A DNA stretch of 32,000 nucleotides from Desulfobulbus propionicus DSM 2032 (GTDB lineage: Bacteria; Desulfobacterota; Desulfobulbia; Desulfobulbales; Desulfobulbaceae): assembly GCF_000186885.1 (NCBI RefSeq), contig NC_014972.1:1800001-1832000 (forward strand), written 5' to 3'. Shown here piece by piece: positions 3,701 through 31,185 of the stretch. The number at the start of each line of letters is the position of its first letter. The first letter of the stretch is position 1. The notes under the pieces are model-generated. The model made no database searches and was not told the DNA's origin. It saw only the letters and a list, made by a program, of their open reading frames with translations. Both the position numbers and the translations under genes were made by a program.

Positions 3701-4615
3701 TCAGGGGCAGCACAACACCTGATTGCCGCCGGCCGCCTTGGCTTGCATCAGGCAGCGGCTGGCAATCAGCAGCAGGTCGTCCGGAGAGGCGTTGCGCTCG
3801 GCGATCTCCGGGGTGAATCCGGCCACCCCGAAACTGGCGGTGCAGCTGACCAGATGGCCGTTCGCCGCACAGTTGAGACCAGCGAACCGTTCGCGCAGCC
3901 GGCTGGCCACCAGGGCGCCGCCACGGATGGGCGTTTCCGGGAGGACCAGCAGGAATTCGTCCTCGCCCCAACGGGTGATGGTGTCGATATCCCGACGAAT
4001 GGATTCCATGGCCATGCGGGCGAATCCGGCCAGGATCTGATCGCCGACGCGGTGGCCCAAGGACTCGTTGACCCCCTTGAGGCCGTCGATGTCGCAGAGG
4101 ATGACCGCAAGCGGGTGGGTGTAGCGCAACGACCGGCGCAGCTCCTTCTTGAGCAGTTCCTCCAGGTGCGGCCTGCTCAGGCAGCCGGTGAGCGGATCGA
4201 TCACGGTCATCAGGTCGATTCGCTCCCACAATTCCTGTTCCTGCAGGACCAGGCCAAACTGGCGGGCGGTGTCGAGGAGGATGGTGGCCAGGATCTCACC
4301 GGAGGTCGATTCCGGCACCACCCGGAACAGGGAGCGGCTGTTGGCCAGGTGCAGGGCGGCGGGCAGATGATCGTCGGGGACCAGCAGCAAGGGGATGGCC
4401 TGGGTGAGGGTGACCGCCTGGTTGAGAAAATCAAGCAGGCCCATGTCGGGCAGTTCACAAGCCACCAGCATCCCGCACCATTGATCCTCCAGGGCCAATT
4501 GGACCAGCCCCGTCCGGCCGTCGGCGACGGTGATAAACTCGAATTTTCCCGTGAAGTCAGCGGGAAGCTGGGCAATATTCAAACGATGGTTGATAATCAG
4601 GATGCGGTGCGACAT
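3701..4615 (-). CDS. Pseudo-receiver domain plus degenerate GGDEF domain protein (GEDEF, I-site retained)
   Basis: The GGDEF-domain core is present (CDIDGLKGVNESLGHRVGD) but the signature reads RWGEDEF, with the second Gly replaced by Glu. RDID (RxxD) lies 5 aa upstream of it. The N-terminal REC-like fold lacks the acidic pocket (IINHR instead of DD), the Asp acceptor (VACELPDM) and the conserved Lys. Confidence 0.8.
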   Translation of the reverse strand: MSHRILIINHRLNIAQLPADFTGKFEFITVADGRTGLVQLALEDQWCGMLVACELPDMGLLDFLNQAVTLTQAIPLLLVPDDHLPAALHLANSRSLFRVVPESTSGEILATILLDTARQFGLVLQEQELWERIDLMTVIDPLTGCLSRPHLEELLKKELRRSLRYTHPLAVILCDIDGLKGVNESLGHRVGDQILAGFARMAMESIRRDIDTITRWGEDEFLLVLPETPIRGGALVASRLRERFAGLNCAANGHLVSCTASFGVAGFTPEIAERNASPDDLLLIASRCLMQAKAAGGNQVLCCP

Positions 4616-5775: not shown

Positions 5776-6099
5776 ATCTTATTGTTTTACTCTTTTTTTA
5801 AAGATAGACGGGGCCGAGGTGCTTGCTGCGCGTGGAACATGGAGCGCAAAGCGCGCAGGAGTCCACCTTCGATCCCTCTTGCTTGCTGGGCAATTGTTTC
5901 AGACGATTCTGCCGGCTGACCGGCGCGCGGACCCTTGCCGCCCGTGCATCCCGGCAGGGACGTGGCGACCTTCCTTAAGGAGAGAAAAATAATAGTTGAT
6001 TTTTTCCAAGAGGTTACTGTACACCTGCTGTCTTAGTAATAAACAGGTAAAGCACCGGCTCTACCAGTGGGCTCCCAAAGTTTGACGGGGAGAATTCCC

Positions 6100-6237
6100 A
6101 TGTATGACGAACAGGGCCTAAGCCACACCAAGAAGGATTGCGAGTATCGTGTCGTATGGATACCAAAGTTTCGCAAGAATGCGATCTTCAATGACTTTAG
6201 TTTTCATAAACATGGAGATAGAGACAATTGTGAATGA
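6100..6237 (+). mobile_element. 5' remnant of an IS200/IS605-family tnpA (Y1 transposase) gene
   Basis: GGGGAG lies 8 nt before the ATG at 6100. The translation MYDEQGLSHTKKDCEYRVVWIPKFRKN matches the conserved TnpA N-terminus (SLxHTKWxCKYHxVFxPKYRR). Similarity is lost after about 27 aa, where the AT-rich DNA begins, and the frame stops at 6235-6237. Confidence 0.6.
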
Positions 6238-7006
6238 TAAAATGGTCGTTATATATCAAATGGGAAAAGTAGCTTCATCAACTATCAAAGCAACGTTAGC
6301 TCAGATAAAAGGATTGAATGTTATTCATACTCATCATCTTAGCTCAAATTATACAAGAAATCTGAATAGCATAAAGAGAAAAATGGGTTGGAAAACAACT
6401 ATCTCACCAGAAAGCATTGACGATCTTTACAATAAAATTATTCATGAAAATGAAATTTATATTATATCTCTGGTGAGAGAGCCAATTGGAAGAAATATTT
6501 CAGCTTATTTCCAAAATTTAGATCTAATATTTAAGCAGGATGATGCATATAAAAATATTCCATTCGATCAAGTTTTAGAAGGTTTTTTTACAAAATACCC
6601 ACATTCGATACCAATAACATGGTTTGATAATGAGTTTAATGAAGTGTTAGGGTTTGATATTTATAATCATGATTTTCCGAAGGATGAAGGGGCTGTTATT
6701 ATAAATAATAAAAAATATCATATACTTGTTATGCGTCATGATATTGATGATGAAAAAAAACAAAAATATTTGCAAAAACTATTAAATATTAAAAATATTA
6801 AGATCGTTCGAAAGAATGAGGCTTCTAGTAAATCATATTTTGAAATTTATGCAAAATTTATTGATAAAATTTCATTTTCTGATGATTATATAAATAATAT
6901 GCTTGAATCTAAGTATACAAAGCATTTTTTTAGTATTGATGATATTGAATATTTAAAAAGTAAGTGGATTAAAAATTGTGACATTTCTGCGCAATCACAA
7001 ATCTAA
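6212..7006 (+). CDS. Sulfotransferase-fold protein (family-2-like), AT-rich orphan
   Basis: A 5'-PSB-like loop QMGKVASST lies at about 6263-6283. A 3'-PB-like motif VREPIGRNISAY (RxPxxRxxS) lies at about 6476-6508. The ORF is open from GTG 6149, but that part reads out of frame through the tnpA remnant. ATG 6212 or ATG 6242 is the more likely start. Confidence 0.5.
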   Translation: MEIETIVNDKMVVIYQMGKVASSTIKATLAQIKGLNVIHTHHLSSNYTRNLNSIKRKMGWKTTISPESIDDLYNKIIHENEIYIISLVREPIGRNISAYFQNLDLIFKQDDAYKNIPFDQVLEGFFTKYPHSIPITWFDNEFNEVLGFDIYNHDFPKDEGAVIINNKKYHILVMRHDIDDEKKQKYLQKLLNIKNIKIVRKNEASSKSYFEIYAKFIDKISFSDDYINNMLESKYTKHFFSIDDIEYLKSKWIKNCDISAQSQI

Positions 7007-24335: not shown

Positions 24336-25046
24336 TCAGCGGCGGCGGCCGTCTTTACTGGCGCGAATGCTTGGAGTGACGATCAGGGCGATCCGTTCGC
24401 TGGCCGCCTTGGACAGGTGCGGGTACTGCTCGCGCAGCCAGACCAGAATACTCGCCTTGTGGGTCGCGGCCGTCGCCGGTTCTGCCCCCGCGAACAGGGC
24501 GGCCCAGCAGGCATTAGCCGCCTGGAGTTCCTGGGCGAAACAGGGATGATCGGGTGTGTTGCCCAGCGCCTCCCCCCTGATTGCCGGCTGGTGGTCGGTT
24601 AAATCGGTCGCGGCCGTACTCCGCGGTTCGATGCGGTGGGTGGTTTCGTGGTTGATCACCTCGTTGAGCCGCGCAAAAAGGCGCATCGGGTTGAGCGCGA
24701 GCATGCTGGTTTCACCCCATTCCTCGCCGACCGAATTGCTGACCGCGATCTCCTTGCCTTTGTCGTCCACGCAAAGAATTTCGGCACCAATCAGCATGCG
24801 GTCAAGGCGCCCTTGCACCTGCCGCAGCACTTCGTGTTGAAGCCGCATTTCGACCTGGGCGCTGGGTTGCGGCGCGGCCGGTTTCTTTTTCTTGCCACCA
24901 TCTCGTTTCTCGATAAACACATCGAAAAATTCGATCCACAGATCTATTGTGCCGGCCAGAGCCATTTCCACAATCTGCTCCGCGCTTGTCCGCCACCGGG
25001 CACGCAGGTCACCGAGATACACACGCTGATTTTCCGGGGTTGTCAT
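24336..25046 (-). CDS. Hypothetical cytoplasmic protein with a Lys-rich linker
   Basis: 236 aa with no signal peptide. A KRDGGKKKKPAAPQP linker is present. AAAGGA lies 7 nt upstream of the ATG. The gene ends 22 nt upstream of the 23078-24313 gene on the same strand. No family was recognised. Confidence 0.55.
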   Translation of the reverse strand: MTTPENQRVYLGDLRARWRTSAEQIVEMALAGTIDLWIEFFDVFIEKRDGGKKKKPAAPQPSAQVEMRLQHEVLRQVQGRLDRMLIGAEILCVDDKGKEIAVSNSVGEEWGETSMLALNPMRLFARLNEVINHETTHRIEPRSTAATDLTDHQPAIRGEALGNTPDHPCFAQELQAANACWAALFAGAEPATAATHKASILVWLREQYPHLSKAASERIALIVTPSIRASKDGRRR

Positions 25047-25357: not shown

Positions 25358-25816
25358 TCAGTTTGGCCGTAGGTCGAGTTGGATGTAGTTGAGGTCCAGT
25401 TGGTCTCCACCCTCGCCACCTACCTCGATCAGCAGACGATCCTGGGTTTCGACAAAGGCAAAGGGTCGGTGGCCATTGGCCTCCAAGACATCCAAGAACA
25501 GGGGATAGAAAAAATCGTTGGTCTGCCCTTGGGGATCATAGGCAAACCGTACGCCGAAGACCGGATATTGACCCTCCCGGCACAGTTGAACCCATTGCAG
25601 TTCGGTTTTTGGCCGCTGACGCACTATTTCCAGGGCAGGCGATTTCCAGGCGCGTGCATCCACGGGGTGACAATCGCGGCCGAGCTGCTGGCTGAGGTCG
25701 AGAGGCGGCTCGGCGCTGGCTGCAAGGGAGGGCAATACCACAAGCAGCAGGAGCAGCAGCGATGTCTTGGCGTCTGGGCATCGTCTATTCAGCAGGGATC
25801 TGGCCGACAAAAACAT
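25358..25816 (-). CDS. Small secreted hypothetical protein directly downstream of the autotransporter
   Basis: GAGAGGA lies 5-6 nt upstream of the ATG at 25816. The signal peptide is MFLSARSLLNRRCPDAKTSLLLLLLVVLPSLAASA. The mature part is about 117 aa. No family was recognised. Confidence 0.55.
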   Translation of the reverse strand: MFLSARSLLNRRCPDAKTSLLLLLLVVLPSLAASAEPPLDLSQQLGRDCHPVDARAWKSPALEIVRQRPKTELQWVQLCREGQYPVFGVRFAYDPQGQTNDFFYPLFLDVLEANGHRPFAFVETQDRLLIEVGGEGGDQLDLNYIQLDLRPN

Positions 25817-25964
25817 GGGGGTTCCTCTCGAAAAAACGGTTGATGGGACCCTGCCGCCACAGCGACCCACCCCAGGATGGGTCTGCTTTCAGGCATTGGG
25901 CAGGGCGTGTTTGCCAGGGGCGTCTTTCCGTTACCCTGTTTGGCGGGTTCGGACAAGCTGGAAA

Positions 25965-28900
25965 TCAAAAGGTCCAAGCGAGGCGCAGGGAGAGGGCATG
26001 GTCGGTGGCACCGTTGTCGCTTTGCAGGGTGCAGTCGTAGCCAAGATGGGCGAATGCGCTTGGCGAGAGGCGGGCCTCGAGCGCGGCGCCCATGACCAGG
26101 CTGTCACCGGCCAGGTCGCGTCCGGGCGTAAGGAACATATCGCCGCCGCCAGCCAGTTGGGACTGCAGATCGTCGCTGTGGCGGTTGAACTCATGCCACC
26201 AGTGCAGCCTGAGTTCCGGTTCCAGGGCAAAGGTCTTCCATTGGAAGGGATAGGCGATCCGGGCGCCGGCAAAGCCGAGCAGGGAATCGCTCGCCCGGGA
26301 GCCTAGGGAGAGATCGGCGCTGTCGGCGCCGGATTCCTGGAAGCCTTCCTCGTCGAGCCTCACCCAGCCGCCACCCACGGAAGGCCCCAGGATCCAGTTG
26401 CCGATCACCCAGTCGTAGCCGCCCTGGACAGTGGCGCCGAACAGGCGGCCCTCGTGGTCGCTGTGGGTTGCACGGCCGGCAAAGGCCAGTGACCGGTCGG
26501 CGTCGAAGTCGATCAGGCCGGTGCCGAGCGCGGCGCCCAACCGCCAGCCCCCCGGGGTCAGGGGATCGTTCCAGGAACCGTAGAGATAGGCGTGCAGACT
26601 TTTGTTTTCCCCTTCGTCGGCACTGCTGTCGGATTCGTAGCGGCTCTCGCCGAGGGCGCCGGCCATGCCCAGGATCAGGCCATCGGCCGTGGAGCGCTCC
26701 AGGCCGAACAGCAGGCCGTAAACGTTCTTTGTCGCCCCGAAAGAGGCATCGTCCGCTTCGTACCGGCTGTGATGGCTGGGGAACTCGAACCAGGCAGTGG
26801 TCGCACCCGCACGGTCGCTGCTCTCCGGCGACGGATCGAAGTGCTCCATGCGGCGGCGCAGGCTGTCGAAACGGGACTGGGCATCGTCGAGGGCCAGGGT
26901 GGTGGCCAGGCCGTGAATGCGCGGGGTCATCTCGGCCAACGCGTTGTTGAGGGCGCTGGTGGTCAAGGCCAGGTCGAGGCGGTCAAGCAGGTCGGCGAAA
27001 TCGTTGGCCGCCGAGGGGCGAACCCTATCCAGGCTGGTTGCCAAGCCGCTGTTATGCGGGATGGCCAGGCTGGTGTAGCTGTTGCGGCTGACCTCCAGGC
27101 TCAGGTTGCCGGGCGAGAGGCTCAGCAGCTCGGTGTCGAGAATGGCGGCGCCTTGCACCCGGTCAAAGACACCGGAGATGCTGCCGGCATCGAGCATGGA
27201 GAAGCTGCCGCCGTTGGTGTAGCCGTTCGGGACGAGAAGCAGGGTCCCGTCGAGCGAGGCGGTGCCGGTGACGGTGAAACGGTCGGCTTGATCGGCACCG
27301 ATTTCCATACCCAGGGTGGCGGAGGAACTCTGGGTATAGTTGCCGTCGATGGTCAGATGGCCGATGGAATGGCCGGGAGACACGGTGCCCCGGTTGGTGA
27401 CGTTGCCGGTCAAGGTGCCGTTGCCGCCCAGGATGCCGTGCGCGCCGACAGTGGTCTCGCCGCCGATGACGCCGTCGATCCCCAGTCGTCCGTGCTCGAC
27501 CTGGATCGCACCAAAGGTGGAATGGCCGGAGAGCGACCAGTCCACCCCGTGCATGACCAAGGTTTCGGCGCCATAGAAGACCTCATTTTCCATGCCATTG
27601 CCATTGAGCAACACCACGTCGGTCTCCCCTGCCATCCACGCCGGCCCAACCAGGTCCGAACCGCTTTGCAGGATGAGACGGGTGGTATCGTAGCTGGCAA
27701 TGGAGGCGTTGTAACCGCTGATCGTGCCGCTGTTGATGATGACCGAGGGGGTGTTCGCCCAGACACCAACACCGCCCTGATAATCGAGCAGGGGCTGCAC
27801 AGAGGAAGCGACCGCGGTGATGGTGCCGCTGTTTTCCAGCCATCCTGGACCCTTGATGAAGGCGACGCCGATTGCCCAATCACCGGAGACCGCGGAAATG
27901 CTGCCCGAATTGGTTACCTGCGTGCGTCCATGGTTTTCCGACCATATCCCGGCGCTTCCCTTGAGCGTGTCCGCTCCTGTTTGGGCCACGATCTCGCCGC
28001 TGTTCTCGATGACCAAATCGTTCTTGCCGTTACTGGCCCATATGCCATAGGAGAGGGTGAAATTGGCATCACTGTCGGCCTCGGCCGTTACTGTTCCCTG
28101 GTTGACGATTTCCCCTCCTTGCAGGCAGATCCCATAGGCAACAGCCTGTCCTTGCGGGCTGAAAGCCGATGCGGTGATCAGTCCTTCATTGCGGACAGAA
28201 CCGCCGGGCCCGCCCCAGAGATAGATTCCGCGCGCCGTTGTCAGCGCCTCGTCCGACTGGGCATGGGCGCCAATCGTGCCCTGGTTGACGACGCTGCTGG
28301 CCTTTCCGCCCCAAAAATCGACGCCATGAGCATTGTAGGTTCCTCCAGCGCTCCAGGGAACCGCCTGGATATCGCCGGTGTTGACGAGGTGCAGACTCTC
28401 GCCGCTCCAGGGTTCCGCGATAAGATAGAAGCTCCAAAGGTTGGACATCGAGGTTGTGTAGCGAAGACGCATGTAGCCGTCCTCTCCCCATTCCTCGCTC
28501 CAGGAATTGCGCAGTATCCAGTAGCCTAGCCCATCTTCTCCGGTCTCGTCATTGTAGCCGATCAATGCCACCGCATGATCCAGGGCTGCTATGTTCACCT
28601 GCGTGGGGACGCGAAAATTGTCGTTGAGGACACCCCCCTGGTAGTCATGCCATTCCTCCCTGTCGGAATTCACGCCAATGGTGACCGCACCGATGGCATG
28701 GAGAACGCGGCGGGTGGTCTCCACGTCATTGACCGGTATGGAATACCAATCCTCCATCGTATAACGCGGGGCATCCCAATGCTGTCCGGCAGGCTGTTCA
28801 ATGACCGTCCACTGATCCTCCTGCACTGGATAGGGATAGACGCTTTCCAAGGGCGTTCCATGTTCCACCATGGCGGTCATCGGATCTTCAAGCAGACCGC

Positions 28901-29195
28901 CATCACAGCCATCCATTCCGTCATACAGGGGGCTGAGACTCCAGACCATGAAGGCCTCGGACAGATCGATGGCCTGCTGGTCGTACAGACCGTGCGTCCG
29001 GTTCCAGGTGCTTTCCGCTGCGGCCAGCGTACCAAAGGCATAACAGCTGCCGCAGTAGGCCTGATCGCGCACGGCACCGATGAAGCTGTGACCGTCGATG
29101 TCGCGCAGGTCAAAGGAAGAAGGAAGATCCATGGCCAGTCCCGGCATCGGAGCCAGGAGCACGGTGGTCAATGAAGCATACAGTGTCAAATTCAT
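25965..29195 (-). CDS. Type Va autotransporter with an N-terminal papain-like (peptidase C1) cysteine protease passenger
   Basis: A signal peptide is present (MNLTLYASLTTVLLAPMPGLA). C1 catalytic motifs are intact: VRDQAYCGSCYAF (Cys codon at 29043-29045), LDHAVALIGY and ILRNSWSEEWGEDGYMRL. A passenger of about 450 aa follows with periodic NxGxI...GI repeats typical of a beta-helix. The C-terminal beta-barrel domain of about 280 aa ends LSLRLAWTF. Confidence 0.85.
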   Translation of the reverse strand: MNLTLYASLTTVLLAPMPGLAMDLPSSFDLRDIDGHSFIGAVRDQAYCGSCYAFGTLAAAESTWNRTHGLYDQQAIDLSEAFMVWSLSPLYDGMDGCDGGLLEDPMTAMVEHGTPLESVYPYPVQEDQWTVIEQPAGQHWDAPRYTMEDWYSIPVNDVETTRRVLHAIGAVTIGVNSDREEWHDYQGGVLNDNFRVPTQVNIAALDHAVALIGYNDETGEDGLGYWILRNSWSEEWGEDGYMRLRYTTSMSNLWSFYLIAEPWSGESLHLVNTGDIQAVPWSAGGTYNAHGVDFWGGKASSVVNQGTIGAHAQSDEALTTARGIYLWGGPGGSVRNEGLITASAFSPQGQAVAYGICLQGGEIVNQGTVTAEADSDANFTLSYGIWASNGKNDLVIENSGEIVAQTGADTLKGSAGIWSENHGRTQVTNSGSISAVSGDWAIGVAFIKGPGWLENSGTITAVASSVQPLLDYQGGVGVWANTPSVIINSGTISGYNASIASYDTTRLILQSGSDLVGPAWMAGETDVVLLNGNGMENEVFYGAETLVMHGVDWSLSGHSTFGAIQVEHGRLGIDGVIGGETTVGAHGILGGNGTLTGNVTNRGTVSPGHSIGHLTIDGNYTQSSSATLGMEIGADQADRFTVTGTASLDGTLLLVPNGYTNGGSFSMLDAGSISGVFDRVQGAAILDTELLSLSPGNLSLEVSRNSYTSLAIPHNSGLATSLDRVRPSAANDFADLLDRLDLALTTSALNNALAEMTPRIHGLATTLALDDAQSRFDSLRRRMEHFDPSPESSDRAGATTAWFEFPSHHSRYEADDASFGATKNVYGLLFGLERSTADGLILGMAGALGESRYESDSSADEGENKSLHAYLYGSWNDPLTPGGWRLGAALGTGLIDFDADRSLAFAGRATHSDHEGRLFGATVQGGYDWVIGNWILGPSVGGGWVRLDEEGFQESGADSADLSLGSRASDSLLGFAGARIAYPFQWKTFALEPELRLHWWHEFNRHSDDLQSQLAGGGDMFLTPGRDLAGDSLVMGAALEARLSPSAFAHLGYDCTLQSDNGATDHALSLRLAWTF

Positions 29196-29317
29196 GGTGT
29201 TTTTGTTCCCGTGATGAAGTGTTTGCCGCGTGCAGCGGTGGACGTGGACCGCGGGCATGATCGCTGTCGAGACGTCTTGGTCGTGATGAGGCAAGGTGTC
29301 CGGGTAACGGCGTTTTC

Positions 29318-29340
29318 AGGGGAGGGGGAGGAGGGGAGAA
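29318..29340. repeat. Pure polypurine/polypyrimidine tract in the autotransporter leader
   Basis: The plus strand reads AGGGGAGGGGGAGGAGGGGAGAA. The transcript therefore carries UUCUCCCCUCCUCCCCCUCCCCU, between the aptamer and the start codon. Confidence 0.7.
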
Positions 29341-29359
29341 CGAGACATGAGGAGAATAC

Positions 29360-29445
29360 GCATGCCGCAGTCCCGCTACCATAGTTTCCCGTAGGCCGGA
29401 GACTTTGCGCCCATACCTTTCGGTATGTTTGCCCAGTTATCAAGA
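29360..29445 (-). promoter_or_regulatory. c-di-GMP-I (GEMM-I) type riboswitch aptamer
   Basis: The minus strand reads CUGGGCAAAC-AUACC-GAAA-GGUAU-GGGCGCAAAGUCUCCGG-CCUACG-G-GAAA-C-UAUGG-UAGCGGGACUGCGGC. The conserved blocks GGGCAAAC, GCGCAAAG, CUCCGGCCUA and GGUAGCGGG match the Vibrio cholerae Vc2 aptamer as I recall it. P2 is a 5-bp stem capped by a GAAA tetraloop (29413-29426). P3 contains an 11-nt-type GAAA tetraloop receptor, CCUACG...UAUGG (29379-29395). Confidence 0.8.
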
Positions 29446-29474
29446 TTCCTATCACAGCAGAAAGGCAATGTCAA
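29446..29474 (-). promoter_or_regulatory. Candidate sigma70-type promoter driving the riboswitch and autotransporter
   Basis: On the minus strand: TTGACA (29469-29474), a 17-nt spacer, then TAGGAA (29446-29451). This places the predicted start a few nt before the aptamer. Confidence 0.4.
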
Positions 29475-29542: not shown

Positions 29543-29578
29543 AAAAAAATGCCCGACAGCCGAAAAGCACTGTCGGGC
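29543..29578 (-). terminator. Rho-independent terminator of the hsp20 operon
   Basis: GCCCGACAG (29551-29559) pairs with CTGTCGGGC (29570-29578) in a perfect 9-bp stem with a 10-nt loop. On the minus strand it is followed by AUUUUUUU (29543-29550). Confidence 0.8.
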
Positions 29579-29612: not shown

Positions 29613-30188
29613 TTAACTTCCAGAGGTGATCTCCACCTTCTTGACCTCTCCCTTTGGCATGGCCTTGCGAGGCATGGTGACGAACAGCACGCCGTTCTTG
29701 AAGCTGGCCTTGATGTTATCCTGATCCACGTCCTCGGGCAGGGACAGTACCCGCTGGAACGAGCCGTAACTGCGCTCGATCCGGTAGTAGTTCTTCTCCT
29801 TGTCTTCTTTTTCCTGTTTCTTTTCGCCCCTGATGGTCAGGGCGCCGGCGGCGATATCCACGGACACATCCTTTTCGCTCACTCCGGGGATCTCGACGGT
29901 GAGTTGATACTCACTGTCGGTGGCGCTCAGATCGACCTTGGGTTTGAGTACTGCCGTGCCCTCAAAGGCGGGAAAAGCGCCGAAACCGCCAACGGCGGGC
30001 AGATTGAAGCCGCGGAAAAATTGATCGAACAGTCGATCGATGTCGCGGTGAATTTGTACCATTGGATCACCGTGCCGTTGTGGATAAAAGGGGGCCTTGT
30101 GTTCGTGTTTCACCGGCACGGTATGCTCGATTTCCTCTTCGTTCTTGAACCAATTCCAGGGGGCCAGTTTTTTCAGTTCCATGGTCAT
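29613..30188 (-). CDS. Hsp20/alpha-crystallin family small heat shock protein (long form)
   Basis: The alpha-crystallin domain is present (YQLTVEIPGVSEKDVSVDI...LTIRGEKK...ERSYGSFQRVLSLPEDVD...ASFKNGVLFVTMPR). The start is 30188 or the ATG at 30182, which has better spacing to GAGGAG. Confidence 0.85.
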   Translation of the reverse strand: MTMELKKLAPWNWFKNEEEIEHTVPVKHEHKAPFYPQRHGDPMVQIHRDIDRLFDQFFRGFNLPAVGGFGAFPAFEGTAVLKPKVDLSATDSEYQLTVEIPGVSEKDVSVDIAAGALTIRGEKKQEKEDKEKNYYRIERSYGSFQRVLSLPEDVDQDNIKASFKNGVLFVTMPRKAMPKGEVKKVEITSGS

Positions 30189-30232
30189 TGCTCCTCTTGC
30201 TTCCGTGTTGGTTGTTCGGCGTATCTGCGTTA

Positions 30233-30619
30233 TCAGCCGACCTTGATTTCAATCTGCCTTGGCTTTGCGGCCTCTGACTTGGGCAGATGGAGCCGCAAGA
30301 CACCGTTACTGAGCTCGGCATGGACTTTCTCGATATCAATGCTCTGCGGCACGGAGAACGTCCGGCGGAATTCCACCTCGCCAAATTCCCGCCAGGCAGC
30401 GGCGCCGCTGGTCACCAGCCGGCGCATGCCGGACAGGGTCATCTTGCCGTTGTCGATGTTGATGGCTATGGCGTCCTTGATCACGCCGGGCATATCGGCA
30501 TAGAGCAGAATCTCGCTGTCGTTTTCAAAAATATCCACTTCGGGCGCGACAACCGGCAGCTGTTGAACAAGTTCTCCTGCCTGTTCTTTTCGGGTGACAA
30601 CCTCGGTGTTCTCGCTCAT
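30233..30619 (-). CDS. Hsp20/alpha-crystallin family small heat shock protein
   Basis: ILLYADMPGV...FRRTFSVPQSID...AELSNGVLRLHLPKSEAAKPRQIEI is present. AGGAGG lies 6 nt upstream of the ATG. Confidence 0.85.
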   Translation of the reverse strand: MSENTEVVTRKEQAGELVQQLPVVAPEVDIFENDSEILLYADMPGVIKDAIAINIDNGKMTLSGMRRLVTSGAAAWREFGEVEFRRTFSVPQSIDIEKVHAELSNGVLRLHLPKSEAAKPRQIEIKVG

Positions 30620-30664
30620 GGGTATCCTCCTTGTTCTGTGTTCGATTTTTGAATGATCGTCGAA

Positions 30665-31111
30665 TCAATTGATACTGATCTGTCGTGGTTTGGCGGCTTC
30701 CGACTTGGGGAGGGTCATTTTGAGCAAGCCATCCTTCAAGGTGGCTTCCACTTTGGAAGCATCTACCTCGTAGGGCAGGGTGAAGCTACGGGAAAAGGAT
30801 CCTGTCCCCCGTTCGGTGCGATGGATTTTAAAGGTGTCGGGGGTGTCCGATTTGCGCGCTCCGCTGATTTCCAGATAGTTGCCCTGAATCTTGACCTGCA
30901 GATCCTCTTTCAGCACTCCGGGCAGTTCAACGACGATTTCCAGATTATCGCCGGTATCGCTGAGATTGGTGCGCGGAAAGGTATCAGCGGCAACCCATCC
31001 CTGGCCGAGATTGTAGGCCCGGTCGAACTCATTGAATACGTTGTTCATCCGGTTGCGGAACAGATCCATGGCCCCCATCATCTGATGAATGTCATTCCAT
31101 CGGGTAATCAT
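30665..31111 (-). CDS. Hsp20/alpha-crystallin family small heat shock protein
   Basis: LEIVVELPGVLKEDLQVKI...FSRSFTLPYEVD...ATLKDGLLKMTLPKSEAAKPRQISI is present. AGGAGG lies 6-7 nt upstream of the ATG at 31111. The 31156 ORF start is rejected. Confidence 0.85.
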   Translation of the reverse strand: MITRWNDIHQMMGAMDLFRNRMNNVFNEFDRAYNLGQGWVAADTFPRTNLSDTGDNLEIVVELPGVLKEDLQVKIQGNYLEISGARKSDTPDTFKIHRTERGTGSFSRSFTLPYEVDASKVEATLKDGLLKMTLPKSEAAKPRQISIN

Positions 31112-31185
31112 CTTGTCTCCTCCTTTTCGTGAGTGTGTAGGGTATGTTCCGATCATGCATGACCCCGTCTTTGTGTTGTAGTTGA

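Follow-up and report, generated by a model that had tools for sequence, protein, structure and literature searches.

Results

Genetic organization of the locus

We analyzed a 32,000-nucleotide (nt) stretch of the Desulfobulbus propionicus DSM 2032 genome (contig NC_014972.1, positions 1,800,001 to 1,832,000), referred to here as the window, in which an RNA element matching the class I aptamer for cyclic dimeric GMP (c-di-GMP-I, or GEMM-I; 29363 to 29443, minus strand) precedes a gene for a predicted surface protease. The gene (25965 to 29195, minus strand) encodes a 1,076-amino-acid (aa) protein composed of a papain-family (C1) cysteine protease passenger and an autotransporter beta-barrel, as indicated by Pfam matches to Peptidase_C1 (PF00112; residues 24 to 249, E = 2.5e-39) and Autotransporter (PF03797; residues 802 to 1054, E = 2.6e-47). 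Its N terminus resembles a signal peptide, an alignment of 40 homologues shows no variation at the predicted catalytic residues Q45, C51, H207, and N230, and the best database match is a D. propionicus protein with 91% identity. Judged by these features, the product fits a type V autotransporter with a papain-family (C1) passenger and is predicted to be surface anchored or secreted.

Three tandem hsp20 (alpha-crystallin) paralogues encoding proteins of 163, 128, and 191 aa lie directly upstream (29613 to 31156, minus strand), and only the last of them is followed by a detected strong terminator (29551 to 29578, minus strand), a 10-bp stem with seven G-C pairs and then seven T residues that marks the 5' boundary of the unit. 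A first-pass annotation of this DNA had placed the aptamer in the spacer between the hsp20 terminator and the autotransporter ATG, and the landmarks bear this out, with the hsp20 stop at 29613, the terminator at 29578 to 29551, and the ATG at 29195. The aptamer is 167 nt upstream of that ATG and on the same strand as the protease gene. Ahead of the aptamer is a promoter-like element consisting of a -35-like hexamer, TTGACA (29469 to 29474, minus strand), which is invariant in the five related leaders considered below, and, 17 nt after it, an extended -10-like element, TG-n-TAGGAA (29446 to 29454, minus strand), of which TGnTAGG is conserved in the same five leaders. The arrangement TTGACA-17 nt-TGnTAGGNN is thus kept throughout; the -10 hexamer is poor, and the element was not flagged by a strict consensus promoter scan. 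Were it to function as a promoter, transcription would be predicted to start some 5 to 10 nt upstream of the aptamer core, and the aptamer would form the 5' end of the protease mRNA and act in cis. Two open reading frames (ORFs) downstream of the autotransporter gene (25358 to 25870 and 24336 to 25046, both minus strand; 170 and 236 aa) have no Pfam match, and the 170-aa product has a signal-peptide-like N terminus. Since the downstream neighbors of the orthologues differ, both ORFs probably fall outside the regulated unit.

Identification and anatomy of the aptamer

A cmscan search of the whole window against 4,227 Rfam families at the curated gathering thresholds gave a single match, that of RF01051 (c-di-GMP-I) to positions 29443 to 29363 of the minus strand, with a score of 66.3 bits against a gathering score of 35 and an E value of 4.5e-11. 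The alignment is untruncated and spans positions 1 to 87 of the 87-position model; RF01051 outscored related clan members at this site, lower-scoring overlapping clan matches being discarded by the scan tool, and c-di-GMP-II (RF01786) gave no match at the gathering threshold anywhere in the window. The first-pass annotation, which had proposed a GEMM-I aptamer at 29360 to 29445, therefore stands up well to the covariance model: the score is nearly double the gathering score, the coordinates agree to within 3 nt, the minus-strand sequence that it quoted is found exactly as written, and the architecture that it described, a P2 stem with a GAAA loop and a P3 stem with a receptor, fits the model consensus. 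In the single-sequence minimum free energy (MFE) fold of the aptamer, P2 was recovered and P3 only partly, with a z score of -1.79 that is marginal relative to shuffled sequences, so that thermodynamic folding alone would have missed the element, which is identified by the covariance model and by comparative data. In all respects open to testing in silico, the element is a member of RF01051 and belongs neither to class II nor, because it carries a G at the position equivalent to position 20 of the Vc2 aptamer, to GEMM-Ib, and we regard the segment from 29443 to 29363 as almost certainly a genuine GEMM-I aptamer.

The P2 hairpin, CAUACC-GAAA-GGUAUG (29412 to 29427, minus strand), is aligned to the P2 helix of the model and is also present in the single-sequence MFE fold; the GAAA-capped stem had been recognized from the outset, but it comprises 6 bp (CAUACC/GGUAUG) and not the 5 bp originally assigned to it. 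It is flanked by GGGCAAAC and GGGCGCAAAG, placing a GNRA-capped P2 between the GGCAAAC and GRCGCAAAG elements, and a C-to-U change in three related aptamers (L083, L084, and L205; see below) retains the affected pair as G-U. The P3 hairpin (29369 to 29404, minus strand), aligned to the P3 helix of the model, contains the motif CCUACG (29395 to 29390)/UAUGG (29383 to 29379), which aligns with CUAAgg...cuAuG in the model and is predicted to be the tetraloop receptor for the P2 loop. Only G-GAAA-C lies distal to this receptor, six distal model positions being deleted, so that coordinates and model alignment agree with the minimal P3 described in the first-pass annotation. The classical 11-nt GAAA receptor is CCUAAG/UAUGG, one base away from the motif found here. 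Among close relatives, the receptor varies at one base only, the third of UAUGG (U, C, or A). The CUACGG variant is itself common: at least 120 stretches were obtained when metagenomic sequences were scanned with a GEMM-I-derived pattern in which CUACGG was obligatory, and none of those listed belonged to the minimal-P3 subfamily, whose 46-nt core is GGGCAAACATACYGAAAGGTATGGRCGCAAAGTCTCCGGCCTACGG, or was informative about the expression platform. Inspection by eye of the 5' flank and the 3' tail revealed no convincing pairing that could constitute a P1 helix. Tandem pairs of GEMM-I aptamers were observed in metagenome contigs L155, L102, L127, L196, and L172; in L155 (220 to 471), the two copies are 207 nt apart, and each is followed by a terminator-like hairpin and a U-run.

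Predicted ligand-contacting positions

In the Vc2 aptamer of Vibrio cholerae, the Hoogsteen edge of one c-di-GMP guanine is read by G20 and the second guanine is paired, in Watson-Crick fashion, with C92 (PMC6140456 and PMC5888326), and the backbone of A47 contacts the ligand (PMC5888326). RNAs of the GEMM-Ib type that bind cGAMP (3'3'-cyclic GMP-AMP) are described as having an A in place of G20 (A14 in Gs1761) (PMC6140456), and wild-type Vc2, with G20, as discriminating against cGAMP, the G20A mutant binding both dinucleotides (PMC6140456 and PMC5888326). The equivalent positions in the window, all on the minus strand, are G29433 (at model position 11, immediately 5' of the paired G-C of the GGCAAAC element), which would discriminate c-di-GMP from cGAMP; A29406 (model position 38, the first A after GCGC [GACGC]), the counterpart of A47; and C29367 (model position 83, a conserved C), the counterpart of C92 and candidate partner of the second ligand guanine. 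Model position 11, where GEMM-Ib has adenine, is occupied by G in the window aptamer as well as in each of its four relatives. Because a G is found at the Vc2 G20 position, together with equivalents of A47 and C92, c-di-GMP is the expected ligand and is quite probably bound selectively; the first-pass annotation had reached the same preference from the retained G, and G29433 upholds it when set against the A of GEMM-Ib (PMC6140456). The window also contains two GGDEF-domain genes (198 to 1361 and 3701 to 4615, both minus strand). The former has an intact GGDEF motif with the canonical N...GD guanine-contact pattern and was counted in favor of c-di-GMP; the latter has a degenerate GEDEF motif, and its product may be inactive or a receptor.

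Conservation among related loci

A protein collection yielded about 78 full-length homologues of the C1 autotransporter, and the loci of the closest ones were compared; a search of genome contigs with a 40-sequence alignment recovered 79 loci, and the same kind of search with a single protein as the query recovered no relative. The aptamer is present upstream of the orthologues in L080/L081, L083, L084, and L205, which encode proteins with 91%, 58%, 57%, and 59% identity, respectively, with scores of 64.5 to 69.4 bits against RF01051. The unit of promoter-like element, aptamer, and gene hence recurs in three further lineages, as four distinct sequences on five contigs, over a range of protein identity of 57 to 91%. 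Pairwise identity is 85 to 98% for the aptamer, 63 to 94% for the first 900 nt of the coding sequence, 22 to 84% for the leader, and 50 to 63% for the DNA upstream of the promoter-like element, which is in effect unrelated between loci; as the identity of the aptamer exceeds that of the coding sequence, the leader, and the upstream DNA, purifying selection on the aptamer is indicated. The neighboring genes vary, with hsp20 in the window, an HD-domain gene in L080, and genes for CheW and a sigma-54 regulator in L083 and L084, and because the neighborhoods of the positive loci differ, what is conserved as a unit is the protease gene with its leader, aptamer, and promoter-like element. It is very likely that the aptamer acts as a cis-regulator of the protease gene.

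In L205 (319 to 3647), two ORFs of 776 and 321 aa take the place of a single orthologue, pointing to a possible frameshift or pseudogene. Neither the promoter-like element nor the aptamer (64.5 bits) is disrupted there, and the leader would be only about 75 nt long if the conserved AACACCAUG at position 295 were the start. When L001 to L040 were scanned with Rfam, no orthologue and no C1 peptidase gene had a c-di-GMP riboswitch nearby. Two other RNA elements, both unrelated to the riboswitch described here, were noted during these comparisons: a group II intron (RF02001 and RF01998) just downstream of a Desulfuromonas orthologue in L006 (7628 to 7908) and, in L032 (1752 to 1998), a cobalamin riboswitch that is encoded on the other strand some 500 nt upstream of the matched C1 peptidase gene.

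Leader and candidate expression platform

Directly 3' of the aptamer is a 45-nt pyrimidine tract (29318 to 29362, minus strand; 87% pyrimidine, 51% C, and 9% G). No other 45-mer of the window, on either strand, matches it in pyrimidine content. The composition of the tract is kept at 76 to 87% pyrimidine in the five leaders; its sequence is not conserved, and the tracts of L083 and L084 are U-rich rather than C-rich. Two hairpins can be drawn between the aptamer and this tract. The smaller, GGCAUG/CAUGUC (29344 to 29366, minus strand; -6.0 kcal/mol), uses the last aptamer nucleotides and has equivalents of -6.2 to -6.7 kcal/mol in L080, L083, and L084, a G-U pair in the window being G-C in L083 and L084. 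The larger is a predicted alternative hairpin (29330 to 29380, minus strand; -15.7 kcal/mol) that would sequester the 3' strand of P3 together with the C92 equivalent, and in isolation it reaches -14.0 to -16.4 kcal/mol across the five leaders. When the aptamer and the following 48 nt were folded together, P3 gave way in the MFE structure of each of the five leaders to a hairpin in which its 3' strand pairs with the tract, and this alternative fold lay 4.2 to 13.5 kcal/mol below the fold in which the aptamer was enforced; in one set of these folds, the gap was 4 to 9.5 kcal/mol. The alternative hairpin is followed by a U-rich tail in L080 and L084.

The remainder of the leader up to the start codon (29196 to 29317, minus strand) lacks an intrinsic terminator. 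A weak Shine-Dalgarno (SD)-like sequence, GGGA, precedes the ATG by 14 nt, and the window, L080, and L205 share the conserved motif A(A/G)AACACCAUG. A second leader hairpin, UGCC(C)GCG/CGCGGCA (29257 to 29224, minus strand), recognized by eye and in the L080 fold, occurs about 30 nt before the start codon. Its equivalent in L080 is the stem GCCGUGG/CCACGGC, in which one pair is C-G versus U-A, a comparison of two sequences that is not evidence of function. The leaders of L083 and L084 are longer and share a block, CCGGCAAGGGGA(U)CAAGCUyCUCCGUGGC, about 60 nt before a UUG start codon (about 2925 to 2960), that is absent from the leader of the window.

Other features of the window

A 1-kb island of 30% G+C (6001 to 7000), in a window of about 60% G+C, coincides with a gene (6149 to 7006, plus strand) for a 285-aa protein of the NKWYS family, putatively involved in capsular polysaccharide synthesis, which is situated among the lipid A genes lpxB, lpxK, and lpxC; the island looks horizontally acquired.

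Discussion

We suggest that the protease mRNA is monocistronic, is transcribed from its own promoter-like element, and begins with the aptamer described in this study, and that the aptamer switches through competition for its own 3' half. When no ligand is bound, the pyrimidine tract would pair with the purine-rich 3' strand of P3 and with the C that contacts the ligand, in a hairpin of about -15 kcal/mol, whereas binding of c-di-GMP would hold the P3 3' strand within the aptamer and leave the tract single stranded; the modeled folds are compatible with such competition between ligand binding and pairing of the aptamer 3' half with the tract. That this is a functional c-di-GMP aptamer at the 5' end of the protease mRNA, operating by competition of this kind, we consider likely. 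The consequence for expression can be stated with less assurance. By analogy with pilM of Geobacter, whose terminator sequesters the C needed for ligand pairing and is incompatible with the aptamer (PMC9262584), our tentative choice, given slightly less than an even chance yet ranked above the other outputs, is an attenuator-type ON switch rather than an OFF switch, in which the ligand would prevent formation of an attenuating hairpin.

A number of observations weigh against this proposal. Dinucleotide-preserving shuffles of the tract fold as well as the tract itself (z = -0.35 for the window, 70 of 200 shuffles being as good), the best case for the alternative hairpin under this control being L084 (z = -2.4); as shuffled tracts pair equally well, the data support conservation of tract composition and not of a specific helix. 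Taken as a whole, the leader shows no exceptional structure (z = +0.71). A consensus scan, which considered loops of 3 to 8 nt only, detected no canonical intrinsic terminator between the aptamer and the start codon in any of the five leaders, and the tail that follows the alternative hairpin in the window, UCCCCCUCCCCU, is C-rich, which weakens an antitermination (ON) interpretation and makes intrinsic termination doubtful at this locus. The correspondence of G20, A47, and C92 with positions of the covariance model is our own alignment to Vc2 numbering. The aptamer is also missing from 30 more-distant full-length orthologue loci, these aptamer-negative loci coming from reference genomes of Desulfuromonadales, Desulfobacterales, Desulfovibrionales, Planctomycetota, and Verrucomicrobiota, and from L207, where the gene begins 25 nt behind another gene; L206, with only 85 nt upstream of the gene, is uninformative. 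Since the distant loci have no riboswitch, the association between aptamer and protease is restricted to the closest clade.

Other outputs can be envisaged for the same switch, and the composition of the tract bears most directly on that ranked second, Rho-dependent OFF control, in which the bound aptamer would expose the C-rich tract as a Rho utilization (rut)-like site and cause early termination, the tract being hidden in the unbound state. The tract has 22 pyrimidine-C dimers in its 45 nt, and over 80 nt the sequence still has 46% C and 12% G; an aptamer strand capable of sequestering it is available, the window leader has neither an intrinsic terminator nor a U-tract after any hairpin, and riboswitch control of Rho-dependent termination is documented in three reports (PMC5499598, PMC10946432, and PMC12360218). 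We nonetheless judge this output unlikely, given that composition alone is a weak basis for a rut site, that the tracts of L083 and L084 are U-rich with only 24 to 27% C, and that the U-rich tails of L080 and L084 look more like intrinsic termination; any role of Rho here is putative. Translational control, ranked third, would require that a CCCCUGA segment (about 29323 to 29317), freed by ligand, pair with UCACGGG (about 29216 to 29210), mask the SD-like GGGA, and repress initiation. The aptamer-enforced fold of the full window leader does pair CCCC.UGA with nucleotides of the UCA.GGGG region, both CCCUGAAAACGCC and UCAC(G/A)GGAAC are conserved between the window and L080, and Vc2 reportedly masks a distant ribosome-binding site. 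The masking helix is, however, only 6 bp long with a C-C mismatch and is confined to the two closest relatives, the leaders of L205, L083, and L084 differing and offering no equivalent pairing, and a GGGA 14 nt from the ATG is a poor SD sequence to begin with, so that this output appears very unlikely. It is conceivable, if quite unlikely, that the leader represents a platform not previously described for cyclic-dinucleotide riboswitches, in which a tract of about 45 nt is either hidden by the aptamer 3' half or exposed by c-di-GMP and then recruits Rho or, alternatively, ribosomal protein S1 or the ribosome; if this were true, factor-dependent termination, and not an intrinsic terminator or SD masking, would place a surface cysteine protease under the control of c-di-GMP.

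Doubts of a more basic kind concern the nature of the element and of its ligand. The conservation might stem from a short ORF, from overlapping ORFs, or from chance or a decayed relic. An AUG at 29348 opens a 10-codon ORF (MSRSPLLPLP*) whose UGA end is shared with L080, in L083 and L084 a homologous AUG just after the aptamer begins an ORF that runs to a UGA overlapping the start codon of the gene, and several mechanically called ORFs of 57 to 90 aa overlap the region. All four codons that differ between the window and L080 in the 10-codon ORF are nonsynonymous changes that keep pyrimidines, a 1-nt indel puts the conserved DNA block of L083 and L084 in different frames, no SD sequence precedes the AUG at 29348, and pyrimidine runs are free of stop codons by composition alone; with neither frame nor sequence conserved and no SD sequence before the AUG, coding does not explain the conservation. 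The nonsynonymous changes, the frame-breaking indel, and the lack of an SD sequence also led us to reject a leader peptide (upstream ORF) as the explanation of the pyrimidine tract, and a chance match is excluded by the E value of 4.5e-11 together with five independent occurrences, leaving this family of explanations with a negligible share of the probability. The first-pass annotation had asserted that no ORF explains the conservation, which is correct insofar as the overlapping ORFs are not conserved in frame or sequence at related loci, but mechanically called ORFs do overlap the site. The possibility that the aptamer is of the GEMM-Ib type and senses 3'3'-cGAMP, or responds to both dinucleotides, draws on the host, a member of the former Deltaproteobacteria, the same former class as Geobacter, in which GEMM-Ib is abundant (PMC8835794), and on the finding that selectivity can shift through single mutations low in P2 (PMC9262584). 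It is made highly improbable by the G that all five related aptamers share at the discriminating position, where cGAMP riboswitches have A, wild-type Vc2 with its G20 rejecting cGAMP (PMC6140456), and by the intact GGDEF enzyme encoded in the window, which has Asp in GxxGD and is, by our reading, of the canonical GTP-specific type.

Sensing of c-di-GMP by a class I aptamer remains, in our view, the best account of the locus, and its novelty should not be overstated. The c-di-GMP-I riboswitch class has been known since 2008, the element is an ordinary further example of a well-known RNA family that any Rfam-based annotation would find, and knowledge of the class itself is unchanged. In the literature that we searched, no paper linked c-di-GMP riboswitches with Desulfobulbus, and no retrieved title or abstract dealt with a riboswitch controlling a papain-type autotransporter. 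What the locus adds is a well-supported candidate c-di-GMP-responsive gene in the Desulfobulbaceae, sulfate reducers in which second-messenger regulation has been little studied, and a tie between c-di-GMP and a papain-type protease, secreted or at the surface, that could plausibly serve as an effector in attachment or dispersal. The cassette of promoter-like element, aptamer, and gene is compact and portable and could therefore serve as a c-di-GMP reporter in this group; likewise, a leader without the usual terminator or SD-masking signals provides a reasonable test case for the means by which GEMM-I aptamers are coupled to expression in high-GC Gram-negative bacteria.

Comparison with known systems

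Four features set the element apart from textbook GEMM-I riboswitches: P3 is minimal, the receptor is the CCUACG variant, no P1 is evident, and the leader has neither a terminator nor an SD-masking helix. In common with Vc2 of V. cholerae, the structural reference for GEMM-I (PMC6140456), the window element belongs to the same Rfam family, combines a P2 GAAA loop with a P3 receptor, and has equivalents of G20, A47, and C92; in contrast to Vc2, its P3 ends, distal to the receptor, in a single G-C pair and a GAAA loop, the receptor has CCUACG in place of CCUAAG, a G and not a C follows the C92 equivalent, no obvious Watson-Crick P1 connects the flanks, and the downstream gene encodes a protease autotransporter and is not tfoY. 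Cd1, from the flgB leader of Clostridioides difficile, is a transcriptional OFF switch that shares the class I aptamer and the G at the G20 equivalent and is reported to form no stable P1 helix (PMC9262584), as is apparently the case in the window, but it has a separate downstream terminator and antiterminator and controls a flagellar operon in a Gram-positive host. Bc1 of the Bacillus cereus group resembles the window element in being a class I aptamer far from its gene, at the head of a long leader; its platform contains two typical Rho-independent terminators (PMC11218506), whereas the window leader has none. Riboswitches that act through Rho, such as lysC of Escherichia coli and others, offer a possible analogy only, namely, the ligand-dependent exposure of an unstructured C-rich region (PMC5499598 and PMC10946432); they respond to other ligand classes, and a role for Rho in the window leader is hypothetical. 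The Geobacter GEMM-Ib riboswitches pilM, Gm0970, and Gs1761, transcriptional ON switches for cGAMP, differ in having an A at the G20 position and in binding cGAMP, and pilM has a real intrinsic terminator, whereas none was detected in the window leader. Even so, their scaffold is highly similar, their hosts belong to the same former class, Deltaproteobacteria, and the hairpin that we propose for the window would take up the aptamer 3' strand and the ligand-pairing C in the same manner as the pilM terminator (PMC9262584).

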